Of a DNA stretch of 32,971 nucleotides, positions 10,459-28,194 are shown piece by piece. Below the pieces are notes generated by a model. That model was not told the origin of the DNA and made no database searches. It saw only the letters and a program-made list of their open reading frames with translations. This DNA comes from Candidatus Parcubacteria bacterium (GTDB taxonomy: Bacteria; Patescibacteriota; Minisyncoccia; Phycocordibacterales; PALSA-1337), in assembly GCA_034666165.1 (NCBI GenBank), contig JAXDMJ010000015.1, forward strand, positions 1 through 32,971, written 5' to 3'. How positions within the stretch are numbered: the first letter of the stretch is position 1; each line of letters opens with the position of its first letter. The position numbers and the translations under genes were made by a program.

Positions 10459-10536
10459 ATGCCACCGTCCTTTCTGTTCTCTACAAGCATACAACAGATT
10501 AACACAAATATCAAGGATGCGGCAAAATTTCCACGG

Positions 10537-10609
10537 AGCCACCTCCCAGGGTCGAACTGGGGACCTTCGCTTTACAAAAGCGTTGCTCTACCGACTGAGC
10601 TAAGGTGGC
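10537..10609 (-). tRNA. tRNA-Thr(UGU)
   Basis: Cloverleaf GCCACCT/AGGTGGC, D-arm GCTC/GAGC, anticodon loop TT-TGT-AA, TTCGA T-loop; CCA not encoded. Confidence 0.95.
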
Positions 10610-14709: not shown

Positions 14710-14739
14710 ATTAAATTTATGTTATCACACTCCAATATG

Positions 14740-14812
14740 TGCCGAGGACCAGGATCGAACTGGTGACCCTTCCCTCTTCAGGGGAATGCTCTACCAACTG
14801 AGCTACCTCGGC
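14740..14812 (-). tRNA. tRNA-Phe(GAA)
   Basis: GCCGAGG/CCTCGGC acceptor, TTCCC-CTGAAGA-GGGAA anticodon arm, TTCGA T-loop; CCA not encoded. Confidence 0.96.
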
Positions 14813-15136: not shown

Positions 15137-15208
15137 GCCCCCGTAGTTCAACGGATAGAACAGTTCCGTCCTAAGGAATAGATGTAGGTTCAATTCCTGC
15201 CGGGGGCA
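15137..15208 (+). tRNA. tRNA-Arg(CCU)
   Basis: GCCCCCG/CGGGGGC acceptor, A20 in D-loop, GTTCC-GTCCTAA-GGAAT anticodon arm, TTCAA T-loop. Confidence 0.93.
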
Positions 15209-15211
15209 CAG

Positions 15212-17847: not shown

Positions 17848-18468
17848 TCAATTCGTCGGCTTCGACACAGCGGCATCCTTATCCGCCATCGCTTCGGTCT
17901 TGACGATCTGCACGGCGATCCGACGCTGTAAAAATTCACGGATGTCGGCGGCTTTCTGCCAGTCGATCGGCGAGAGGATGACTTCCGTCTCGTTCTCCTC
18001 GCCCGGTTCCTCGTGTCCGGCGCTGTCGATCACCAGCCGGCTGGTACCTAGCAGCCTGTAAAGCAGGGTGCGTTGGACATTGATGTCCTGCATCTGGCGG
18101 TACGGAATGGTCACTTCCCTCCTGTATATGATGCCGCGCCGGAGCCGCAGGCTGAATTCCTGGAGCGTAAACGTGAAGCAATAATATTCGAGGATGGTGA
18201 AGACGGAAACGCCGAAGATCAAGAGGACCGAGACGGCAAAGAGGCTGTCGATGGCAAAAGAGATGTATTCAGAGACGCTTTCGATCGCAGCTTGCTGCTC
18301 GACCGGGTCGAGGTTGAAAAGCCTCAAGGCGCCGATAACGATAGCGTCATGGGCCATGGCGATCAAGAAAGCGACGACAAAGAGAGCCAGGGCGGCCAAG
18401 AGACGGCCGAGGATCATGACCACGAAGCCTCTGTTCCCAAGGTGCTGTTCGCTTTGGAGGGCGATCAT
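17848..18468 (-). CDS. Bacterial PH-domain (bPH_2/YdbS-like) membrane protein
   Basis: Two TM helices then RRGIIYRREVTIPYRQMQDINVQRTLLYRLLG..RLVIDSAG; start ATG 18468. Confidence 0.85.
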   Translation of the reverse strand: MIALQSEQHLGNRGFVVMILGRLLAALALFVVAFLIAMAHDAIVIGALRLFNLDPVEQQAAIESVSEYISFAIDSLFAVSVLLIFGVSVFTILEYYCFTFTLQEFSLRLRRGIIYRREVTIPYRQMQDINVQRTLLYRLLGTSRLVIDSAGHEEPGEENETEVILSPIDWQKAADIREFLQRRIAVQIVKTEAMADKDAAVSKPTN

Positions 18469-18605
18469 GGCCAAATTATAGCACGCAGACGGATGAGGTG
18501 GCACGTTTGCCGTTTCAAAACTTTAAATCCCATGTTATAGAATATAATCCCCAGCGAAATACGTGATATTCACAGTTTGTCCACAAGCTTTTCCCCGAAT
18601 GTCAT

Positions 18606-18633
18606 TTGACTTTTTTCGGCATGAATCTAAAAT
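18606..18633 (+). promoter_or_regulatory. Sigma70 promoter of candidate ncRNA
   Basis: TTGACT-16nt-TAAAAT with no plus-strand gene downstream. Confidence 0.65.
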
Positions 18634-18640
18634 GATATCA

Positions 18641-18776
18641 GGTTCACTTACAGGAGAGGATCCTTAACTAATCAATACGGTTGTCCACAAATACCCTACT
18701 CTGACCTCGTGTCTAGAGTCGCGGCTCAGGACACCACCTTACATTTTTCGGAATCCATCTCCTCGTAGCAGTGACC
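18641..18776 (+). ncRNA. Candidate 6S-like RNA
   Basis: 5' and 3' ends pair (GGTTCACT..TAC-AGGAGA-GGATCC with GGAATCC-A-TCTCCT-C-GTA..AGTGACC), symmetric 15/14-nt A/U/C-rich bubble, inner stem GGTTGTCC/GGACACC and apical hairpin; own promoter and terminator. Confidence 0.6.
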
Positions 18777-18785
18777 AATTATGGT

Positions 18786-18813
18786 ACAGCAACCCGCTTC
18801 GGCGGGTTGTTGT
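18786..18813. terminator. Strong hairpin terminator (probably bidirectional)
   Basis: ACAGCAACCCGC-TTCG-GCGGGTTGTTGT, UUCG tetraloop. Confidence 0.8.
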
Positions 18814-18839
18814 GCATCTCGGCTACTTACTACGGGCGC

Positions 18840-20114
18840 TTACGGTTTTTTCCGAACGACCAGTGTCCCGGCATATCTCACGAATAATATTGATGCGGTT
18901 GAAATGAAGACGCCGAGCGCCCAGCCGGCGATGACGTCAGAGGCCCAATGCACGTTCAAGATCAGGCGCGAAAGGCCGATCAGAATGACCAGAAGCGCGC
19001 AGACGACGATCATGATCTCCCTTTTGATCCAGGAACTGATCTTGGGTGCAAAAAGATATGCCGCGGCCACGAAAAAAGCCGCAGAAATAGCGGCGTGACC
19101 CGAAGGAAAGCTCGGGTCATTGACGAGTGTGACGACGGCATTGGCCGGACGGGCAAGCATAAAAAACTCCTTCAGAACGCCGACCATTAAGGCCGTCCCG
19201 CCGATCGAGAGGAGCATGACGGCGGCCGAACGCCATTTTTTCCGCACGAGAAACCAGAGGCCTAAGAGCGAGCCGACGGCCGGCAGGACAACCGTGCCGC
19301 CGACAGCCGAGACCGCTTTGGCCAAAAGAATGAAAAACGGGTGTGCTCGGCCGAAGCTGTCCATCGCGCCATTGACCCAAACATCGAAGCCGAGCTTGAA
19401 AGCCTTGTCAGTCAAACGATCGATCGTTCCGAAAAGCGCCCAGAGAGAAATGACATTCAAAGCCAAAGTAATGAGTTCGTACCGGCGGAAAATATGGAAA
19501 CGCATGTTGACGAAACGGTAGCCCCAGATGATGATCACTGCCGCGATCACGGCGATGGTGGCGAAACGGCCGAAATACGGGGCGATAGTGTGGTAGCCGG
19601 CGCCGAAAATATAGCCGGCAAAGACTGAAAGCACCGTCCAGCTCGCGCCGCCGATCAGGTTGAACAGCCAGAAACGTCCAGCCGGCGCGCGGCCGCAGCC
19701 GACCAAAAAAGGCAGAAGAGAGCGCGTGGCCGGCGTGAACCGCCCGACGATCATGGCTTTGCCGGTATGTTCCGAGAGCAAGACGCGGGCCCGTTCGATG
19801 TGGGCATCCGTCACGAAAAAAAACGGCCGGACCCGCTCGATAAAGGCCGGGCCATACTTGCGTCCGATGGCAAATCCTATGTAATCGCCTAGAACCGCTC
19901 CCGTCATAGATACGGCCAGAACCCAGCCCAGATCTAAGGTGCCTATTTTGGCCATAAAACCGGCAATGATCACCGAAATATGCCCGGGTACGGCAATCCC
20001 GATCACCGGAATGCCCTCAAGTATCGTAAAGATGAAGAGGATTACATAGCCGCTCTGTGAGATTATGCTTTCAAGATTCGCTCCGAGGGTTACAAAGAGA
20101 TGTGCATAAGGCAT
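18840..20114 (-). CDS. Bifunctional DedA-family / PAP2 phosphatase membrane protein
   Basis: DedA: GAVLGDYIGFAIGRKYG, GRFTP..R; PAP2: LKEFFMLARP, SFPSGHA, SRLILNVHWASDVIAG. Confidence 0.92.
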   Translation of the reverse strand: MPYAHLFVTLGANLESIISQSGYVILFIFTILEGIPVIGIAVPGHISVIIAGFMAKIGTLDLGWVLAVSMTGAVLGDYIGFAIGRKYGPAFIERVRPFFFVTDAHIERARVLLSEHTGKAMIVGRFTPATRSLLPFLVGCGRAPAGRFWLFNLIGGASWTVLSVFAGYIFGAGYHTIAPYFGRFATIAVIAAVIIIWGYRFVNMRFHIFRRYELITLALNVISLWALFGTIDRLTDKAFKLGFDVWVNGAMDSFGRAHPFFILLAKAVSAVGGTVVLPAVGSLLGLWFLVRKKWRSAAVMLLSIGGTALMVGVLKEFFMLARPANAVVTLVNDPSFPSGHAAISAAFFVAAAYLFAPKISSWIKREIMIVVCALLVILIGLSRLILNVHWASDVIAGWALGVFISTASILFVRYAGTLVVRKKP

Positions 20115-20122
20115 ATTTGCAG

Positions 20123-20144
20123 AGTATACCATGCATGCTATACT
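20123..20144. promoter_or_regulatory. Back-to-back extended -10 elements (divergent promoter)
   Basis: AGTATA-CCATGCATGC-TATACT gives TGnTATACT on both strands. Confidence 0.55.
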
Positions 20145-20520: not shown

Positions 20521-20542
20521 TATTTTGGAAGCGGGATCCGTG

Positions 20543-20613
20543 TGCGGGTACGGGGAATCGAACCCCGATCTGCTGCTTGGGAAGCAGCCATTCTGCCACT
20601 AAACTATACCCGC
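20543..20613 (-). tRNA. tRNA-Gly(CCC)
   Basis: GCGGGTA/TACCCGC acceptor, GCTGC-TTCCCAA-GCAGC anticodon arm, TTCGA T-loop. Confidence 0.95.
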
Positions 20614-27742: not shown

Positions 27743-27774
27743 GAAAATCCCGCCCTTTTCGGCGCGGGATTTTC
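27743..27774 (-). terminator. rnpB terminator
   Basis: GAAAATCCCGC...GCGGGATTTTC inverted repeat directly after the RNA 3' end. Confidence 0.75.
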
Positions 27775-27776
27775 AG

Positions 27777-28141
27777 ATGTCATACCGTAAGCCGAATTCT
27801 GTTTGAGACAACCATTTATCTGGGACCGCGATCGCTCGCGGCCTCAAGCGGTTCTCCGTGCGCCATTTCTTGCGAAATGGTGCACGGCGCGACCTTGCAC
27901 CGAGGTAAGGATTTGGCCGTTGCACTCCGCGCGTTGCCGCACGGACTATTCCCGAAGGAACCGTTCACCGTTTCCGGCGAACGCGTCTCTGTTCGCACCT
28001 CTCGGATCACCCGGACGGGCGTTACCCGCTACCCTGCTGCCGTGCACCATTTCCTCGCGGAAATCGCGAACGGCCGGTGTTCGGACTTTCCTCATGCCGC
28101 CCTTTCGTTAGAAATTGCGTCACGCGGTTGTCTGGTACGAC
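27777..28141 (-). ncRNA. rnpB: RNase P RNA
   Basis: Universal P4 strands GAGGAAAGTCCG and ACAGAATTCGGCTTA, P1 GTCGTACC/GGTATGAC, P2 AGACAACC/GGTTGTCT, P18 hairpin; TATAAT at 28148-28153. Confidence 0.95.
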
Positions 28142-28194
28142 GCGGACATTATACCCTATCTTCAAGAGCTCGGCAACATAGACGAATATATGAA

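Follow-up and report, generated by a model that had tools for sequence, protein, structure and literature searches.

A free-standing RNA gene with its own promoter and terminator is located at positions 18606 to 18815 on the plus strand of the window, the term used here for the whole analyzed stretch of 32,971 nt of DNA from a Candidatus Parcubacteria bacterium. Its transcribed part, counted from the predicted start, comprises positions 18640 to 18815 (+). On one side, the gene is flanked by the gene for a bPH_2-domain protein (17848 to 18504) and on the other by that for a VTT/PAP2 membrane protein (18840 to 20132), and both adjoining genes are on the opposite, the minus strand. A small-peptide gene was ruled out because the core of the RNA (18668 to 18770) is not covered by any open reading frame of at least 30 aa and the conservation follows base pairs.

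The −35 box TTGACT at positions 18606 to 18611 (+), as read from the sequence, is followed after a 16-nt spacer by the −10 box TAAAAT at positions 18628 to 18633 (+), and transcription may be initiated at about 18640 to 18641. All 23 aligned homologues share the TTG of the −35 box and, in the −10 box, the A of the second position and the last T, and TTGAC is present in 49 of 61 members. These 61 members are those having at least 45 nt of upstream sequence. A TTGnnn-N16-18-nAnnnT pattern was found upstream of the RNA in 60 of them, with a spacer of 16 nt in 43, of 17 nt in 13, and of 18 nt in 4 members. Judged by these motifs, the promoter of the RNA gene is of the sigma-70 type and close to the consensus. 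A conserved start, cAGG, is present in all recovered homologous loci.

The fold of positions 18637 to 18817 contains a rod of 136 nt with a central bubble of 15 nt in one and 14 nt in the other strand. The 5' strand of the closing stem (18641 to 18663, +) pairs with the 3' strand (18750 to 18776, +) in 22 bp that are arranged in six runs, a pairing obtained from the minimum-energy fold and from covariation. In the 5' strand, conservation is highest at the inner end, GGAGAGGAUCC, which RNA polymerase would read while it makes product RNAs. The 5' bubble strand (18664 to 18678, +; 15 nt) is unpaired in the minimum-energy fold and opens with a near-invariant UUAA, with U in 54, U in 62, A in 62, and A in 63 of 63 sequences. 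It leads to the inner stem, composed of the 5' strand GGUUGUCC (18679 to 18686, +) and the 3' strand GGACACC (18729 to 18735, +). The apical domain between these strands (18687 to 18728, +) folds into an internal loop and a variable hairpin (18694 to 18724), which is longer in the window than in most relatives. On the way back, the 3' bubble strand (18736 to 18749, +; 14 nt) starts with ACCU, contains a −10-like UACAUU, and is also unpaired.

Rod and terminator are connected by a single-stranded linker, AAUUAUG (18777 to 18783, +), which holds the conserved UAUGG motif of the family. In the family, the linker carries a nearly invariant UAUGG(C/U)A that is preceded by CCAU or CCUACCC and could be a processing or protein-binding site. 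The intrinsic terminator (18784 to 18815, +) is, in the minimum-energy fold, a 14-bp hairpin with a UUCG loop and a G+C core between an A-rich and a U-rich arm. The main elements had been proposed in a preliminary description of this DNA, which gave a promoter TTGACT-16-TAAAAT, a closing stem of 18641 to 18663 with 18750 to 18776, a bubble of 15 and 14 nt, an inner stem, an apical hairpin, a UUCG terminator, and no credible open reading frame; each of them was recovered, at the same positions and with no frame of at least 30 aa covering the core.

The 180-nt plus strand folds with −65.5 kcal/mol compared to a shuffle mean of −42.6 (z = −5.43), and 0 of 200 shuffles were as good. The minus strand is also stable (z = −4.31), and the rod pairs, with 68 G-U versus 68 A-C, are uninformative on the strand. 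Because the pairing of the rod gives no strand signal, assignment to the plus strand relied on promoter and terminator as well as on motif order. The terminator pairs, with 43 G-U versus 3 A-C, are consistent with the plus strand.

Homologues, covariation, and gene neighborhood

A DNA search in 101 related genomes yielded clear homologues in the same genus, and local blastn identified 22 homologous loci among the 30 that were fetched, with the locus of the window itself (L001) excluded. The recovered homologues all share the −35 box, the −10 box, the rod, and the terminator, and the same minimum-energy architecture is present in 21 of 23 homologues. RNAalifold on a plain MAFFT alignment recovered the terminator only. 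The rod was missed because the closing stems, which are variable in length, had been misaligned, and this was solved with a covariance model, R1, built from 10 sequences with 43 pairs. R1 gave full-length single matches of 139 to 180 nt with an E value of 2e-9 or less in 63 of 93 genus genomes, and the tally at an E value of 0.001 or less was 70 of 93. The RNA of the window scores 129 bits with R1, and the gene is present in a single copy in its own genome according to this model.

In the alignment A5, the sequence of the window is joined by 61 further ones of the genus and by one of another family, which gives 63 in total. Standard pairs occupy 92.3% of its pair cells compared to 35 to 48% with the partners slid by 1 to 3 columns, compensatory changes on both sides occur in 42 of 43 bp, and 0 of 500 shuffles reach any of five covariation measures, all values of an alignment that was fitted to the tested model, which favors pairing, and of relatives that are not independent of each other. 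The preliminary description had tied its reading to covariation in the closing and inner stems, and this was found: both sides changed in 17 of 18 pairs of helices 1 to 3, the closing stem, and in 6 of 6 pairs of helix 4, the inner stem, with the 42 of 43 pairs referring to the whole structure. In the apical hairpin (helices 5 to 7), the sequence and the loop vary while the pairing is kept. The terminator changed on both sides in 14 of 14 pairs, and 97.5% of its cells are paired in the 63-sequence alignment.

The bubble is, in the mean of the 63 members, 15.9 nt long in the 5' strand and 13.1 nt in the 3' strand. A TAnnnT motif is present in the 3' bubble of 49 of 63 members compared to 20 of 63 in the 5' bubble, which is just as rich in A and U. 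The fold of the window RNA does not contain a hairpin in the 3' bubble. A candidate 4-bp hairpin in this strand showed 68.4% pairing versus a shuffle mean of 68.3%, with 255 of 500 shuffles as high, and an alternative “collapse” hairpin in the 3' bubble was thus rejected as being without covariation support.

Clustering of the neighboring open reading frames in 36 loci, the window's own and 35 from other genomes, revealed an enolase gene that ends about 100 to 200 nt upstream of the RNA gene on the same strand in 27 of the 36, two of these 27 enolase neighbors being confirmed against Pfam. A phosphoglycerate mutase gene is located beyond enolase in the loci of the relatives. From such a position, the RNA could be taken for a 3'-UTR or cis-acting element that belongs to the gene upstream (enolase in most relatives) and results from processing or read-through, instead of an independent RNA gene. 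Against this explanation, 60 of 61 members have a full −35/−10 promoter that separates the RNA from the upstream gene. In the window, moreover, the RNA is located between two genes of the opposite strand, and its assembly is without enolase by tblastn, but the RNA is still fully conserved, as the 129 bits with R1 indicate. An origin as a 3'-UTR element is consequently very improbable.

Enolase and a phosphoglycerate mutase of the dPGM type were both absent from the window's own assembly (G000, 92% complete) by tblastn. Either the two genes are in the unassembled part of G000, or the species lost both and the RNA gene moved. Since the neighbors in the window differ from those in most relatives and enolase is missing from the assembly, the RNA gene should be regarded as an independent unit. 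Enolase and dPGM were also not found in the available flanks of 12 RF00013-found loci (L140 to L151) or in those of L071, L078, L084, and L092. Synteny was dropped as evidence for orthology, because the enolase neighborhood is a feature of the genus only.

Searches for known RNA families

At the gathering thresholds of Rfam, the whole window contains RNase P RNA and four tRNAs only. The tRNA genes are Thr-TGT (10535 to 10609), Phe-GAA (14739 to 14812), Arg-CCT (15137 to 15209), and Gly-CCC (20542 to 20613). The RNase P RNA of class A at 27773 to 28143 (−) has a score of 109.8 bits, just above the threshold of 100, and is a reduced form, in the alignment of which extensive regions of the model are missing or substituted. 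When the region 18450 to 18900 was searched at an E value of 10 or less, only terminator-type chance matches appeared and none to the 6S RNA model RF00013, the gathering threshold of which, 46.4 bits, was not exceeded by the window RNA. The result was the same for 20 homologues of the genus, with no match to RF00013 and only terminator-type chance matches to Rfam at an E value of 10 or less. RF00013 did not match in the window's own 663-kb assembly, while control genomes gave matches, and another 6S candidate in this assembly was not found by this model. Ms1 RNA from actinobacteria and the separately modeled 6S-like families of Rfam such as 6S-Flavo are rods for which an action at RNA polymerase is assumed, and are examples of 6S-type RNAs outside the cover of the main 6S model. 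With respect to families of this type, the region in the window has no Rfam match at an E value of 10 or less except the terminator-type chance matches.

Elsewhere in the phylum, RF00013 identified 6S RNAs in 22 of 150 genomes at an E value of 0.01 or less, 7 of them over the cut-off, and these phylum 6S RNAs are compact, with 143 to 197 nt. In the order of the window, none of 150 genomes had a match over the cut-off and 8 matches were weak. Inspected by eye, 7 of the 8 weak matches, all except that of G149, have the rod and the blocks in common with the window family, and in each of them the rod is immediately followed by a terminator. Because the weak matches share rod and blocks, the order is a blind spot of RF00013 and not a group without 6S RNA.

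Evaluation of a rod without a match in Rfam needs to consider the housekeeping RNAs. A very divergent SRP RNA could be assumed, since SRP RNA is otherwise unaccounted for: the models RF00169, RF01854, and RF01857 had no match in the genome and none above the cut-off among 61 genus genomes. The protein partners of SRP RNA are, however, missing too. There was no match in the genome to PF02978, PF00448, TIGR00959, or TIGR00064, which represent Ffh and FtsY, and no open reading frame of the genome with both SRP-GTPase motifs, and the Ffh M domain PF02978 was found in 0 of 61 genus, 0 of 121 order, and 0 of 101 phylum genomes. SRP RNA has a conserved tetraloop, but the apical loop of the window family is variable in sequence and size. 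An orphan SRP RNA was rejected because the SRP RNA models and the SRP proteins were both without matches, a tmRNA piece because tmRNA is encoded on another contig, and RNase P RNA because it is located elsewhere, at 27773 to 28143 (−) of the window. With tmRNA and RNase P RNA found elsewhere in the genome, the probability of a divergent SRP RNA or another housekeeping RNA at this locus is close to nil, and the two alternatives named in the preliminary description, SRP RNA and a piece of tmRNA, do not apply. A published paper (PMC8080830) already describes the lack of SRP subunits in many CPR bacteria. In one paper on Patescibacteria, the term “6S RNA” denotes SRP RNA.

Relationship to 6S RNA

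The window RNA has in common with the 6S RNA of RF00013 that it is encoded by a free-standing single-copy gene and forms a rod in which a large central bubble separates the closing stem from an apical stem-loop. Its length of about 175 nt from the predicted start to the terminator is a further likeness. In the cmscan output for two accepted 6S RNAs from the phylum, the consensus of RF00013 around the bubble reads uGAgCC, 16 unpaired positions, GGGagccc ... gggcaCCC, ACCU with 9 further unpaired positions, and GGuUCa. The corresponding blocks of the window family are aGAUCC, 15.9 positions on average, GGGUCC ... GGACACC, AC(C/U)U with about 9 further positions, and GGAAUC. Compared by eye, the order of the blocks, their spacing, and most letters agree, the two strands of the bubble measuring about 16 and 13 nt in the window family and 16 and 13 unpaired positions in RF00013. 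The 5' strand of the inner stem in the window corresponds to GGGagccc, and GGACACC is gggcaCCC minus one C, aligned as GGACA-CCACCU with GgCACCCACCU. This loss of one G-C pair, leading to CACC-ACCU for CACCCACCU, is the main difference between the two.

Other differences concern the parts around these blocks. The apical arm has about 50 nt in the window family compared to about 70 model positions in RF00013. In place of the usual 3'-bubble hairpin, the family has a −10-like stretch that is rich in U and A. The terminator hairpin follows directly after the conserved UAUGG linker, which has no counterpart in the RF00013 consensus. According to PMC8414754, the 3'-bubble hairpin, opposite the 5' central bulge, is predicted in many 6S RNAs, and its formation was shown in B. 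subtilis 6S-1. The hairpin is not universal in 6S RNAs. The compact 6S RNAs from other families of the same phylum and order that were found by RF00013 (L140 to L167) have rods of 143 to 197 nt and share blocks with the window family, for example, GGACACCCACCU adjoining the 3' bubble. Those of the same order have, like the window family, a terminator right behind the rod. Unlike the window family, L140 to L167 keep a 3'-bubble hairpin of the CCUGG...CCAGG type and the full GGG/CCC helix.

Models built from either side connect both groups in part, with E values of R1, R2, and R3 that are rough. R2 was built only from 21 RF00013-found 6S RNAs, and its 63 positions extend over the apical domain into the beginning of the 3' bubble. 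With filters off, the best match of R2 in the whole 33-kb window is 18672 to 18744 (+), in register with the RNA, albeit a weak one of 12.6 bits and an E value of 0.1, not significant on its own. On relatives from sister families, R2 matched significantly, with 38.5 bits for L092 (E value of 4e-9) and 23.5 bits for L078 (E value of 1.7e-4). Among 47 loci of the genus, 22 have a weak match of 7 to 17 bits on the apical domain and the right strand; the 36 matches listed for these 47 loci divide into 22 on the apical domain, 8 on the terminator hairpin, and 6 elsewhere. R1 matched in full length with 32.0 bits on L078 and 28.8 bits on L092, scores to be read in light of the terminator hairpin, which inflates the R1 scores of distant relatives and yields up to about 28 bits alone. 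L092 has a marginal RF00013 match of 19.9 bits at the same place, and L078 shares the derived CACC-ACCU state with the window family.

A core-only genus model without the terminator, R3, from 60 sequences, matched at the 6S site of L071 with 28.7 bits (E value of 4e-4), of L084 with 23.1 bits (E value of 0.007), and of L078 with 19.2 bits (E value of 0.05), and weakly matched the RF00013-type RNAs L163 and L162 at the 6S site. R3 matched none of L140 to L160 and had no match on L092 at an E value of 10 or less. R1 had a match at 0 of 12 6S sites of RF00013-confirmed 6S RNAs from other families. Only within the order did the genus models reach RF00013-found 6S RNAs, and there weakly. Since the models of the genus miss confirmed 6S RNAs, the link to 6S RNA rests on two or three intermediates and on the match of the motifs by eye.

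Genome G141 from a sister family has two tandem matches to the family model, L084:1269-1419 and L084:1501-1663 (+), and a separate weak match of the RF00013 type on another contig (L165). These may be 6S paralogues.

An RNA that is specific for the lineage and only resembles 6S RNA, with bubble strands binding another protein or other RNAs and without a role at RNA polymerase, is the explanation that needs to be weighed at this point. It would account for the complete lack of Rfam matches, for the strong sequence conservation of the bubble strands, which is as expected for a specific contact with a protein or RNA, for the only moderate statistical link to the 6S RNAs of the RF00013 type, and for the UAUGG linker that has no counterpart in the RF00013 consensus. 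The conserved blocks, on the other hand, are the same as in RF00013 and are present in the same order and spacing, intermediate forms exist in sister families, and RF00013 found no other 6S RNA in the genome. A conserved neighboring protein gene that hints at a partner is also missing, as the enolase and phosphoglycerate mutase genes of the relatives are not present beside the window's copy. This explanation is therefore rated as unlikely, and positions 18640 to 18815 (+) are most likely, with some room for doubt, the 6S RNA gene (ssrS) of this lineage in a shortened and divergent form. The subfamily is characterized by an inner helix next to the bubble that is one base pair shorter, a short apical arm, and a hairpin replaced by a −10-like TAnnnT.

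This agrees with the compact divergent 6S RNA of the preliminary description, a proposal now backed by the architecture, the sizes of the bubble, the flanking blocks, the 6S RNAs of the phylum, and the intermediates in sister families; the negative cmsearch with RF00013 fits the divergence it had assumed. A new class of noncoding RNA, which it had offered as the alternative, receives no support, and neither does its rating as the best candidate for an undescribed system in the window. This kind of RNA is already known; new is the divergent, shortened subfamily that is missed by the Rfam model across a whole order. The literature search, which did not include the survey “Dissemination of 6S RNA among bacteria,” revealed no report of a 6S RNA in this bacterial group.

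Possible action on RNA polymerase and biological meaning

As excerpts of PMC8414754 describe it, 6S RNA binds the housekeeping holoenzyme in competition with promoters, and its large 5' central bulge contains the start site of product RNAs, which rearrange the 6S RNA and release the enzyme when they are of sufficient length. In analogy to these 6S RNAs, the rod of the window RNA would take the place of open promoter DNA in the housekeeping sigma-RNA polymerase holoenzyme, bound in its active-site cleft. In this mimicry, upstream DNA would be represented by the apical arm, downstream DNA by the closing stem, and the melted −10 region by the bubble, with sequestration of the enzyme as the result. 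As regards a target, the genome contains three open reading frames of the sigma-70 family, one long with an open frame of 460 aa and two short. Coming from the apical arm and leading to the closing stem, the 3' bubble strand has the polarity of a nontemplate strand.

When nucleotides return, the 5' bubble strand may serve as a template, with a start in the invariant CCUUAA box (18662 to 18667), and synthesis would continue into the closing stem in the direction of 18653. By unzipping the conserved inner part of this stem, the short product RNA would release the polymerase. The most conserved stretch of the family, GAUCCUUAA, is located at the junction of the closing stem and the 5' bubble, with C in 63 of 63 and UUAA in 54 to 63 of 63 sequences, and should, if the analogy holds, contain the start of the product RNA. 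PMC8414754 names two hallmarks of product RNAs, a conserved GG at positions 4/5 or 5/6 and, adjoining the start, an A. If synthesis began opposite U18665, A18666 would adjoin the start, 18653 to 18664 would be read, and the GG complementary to C18662 and C18663 would occupy positions 3 and 4. With a start opposite C18668, GG would occupy positions 6 and 7, so that both candidate starts agree with the hallmarks only roughly. Because the 3'-bubble hairpin is absent, the release of the polymerase may differ in detail. A shift between sigma factors is possible, as is a general brake on transcription, and both are compatible with three open reading frames of the sigma-70 family. The dormancy switch that the preliminary description had considered is a hypothetical role.

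A further, rather speculative idea concerns the −10-like strand. The subfamily might imitate a promoter more literally than all 6S RNAs studied so far, with region 2 of sigma reading UAnnnU in a base-specific manner, which would mean sequence-specific binding and a different rearrangement for release. If true, the 3'-bubble hairpin that helps to eject the polymerase in model 6S RNAs would have been lost, and such binding and release would operate in organisms with very few regulators.

Even very small genomes are expected to encode 6S RNA, one of few global regulators for which this holds. The 63-sequence alignment and the models would permit annotation of its gene in the blind spot of RF00013, and they define a minimal 6S RNA with a rod of 136 nt. 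This RNA differs from the model systems in having no 3'-bubble hairpin, and a −10-like strand instead.
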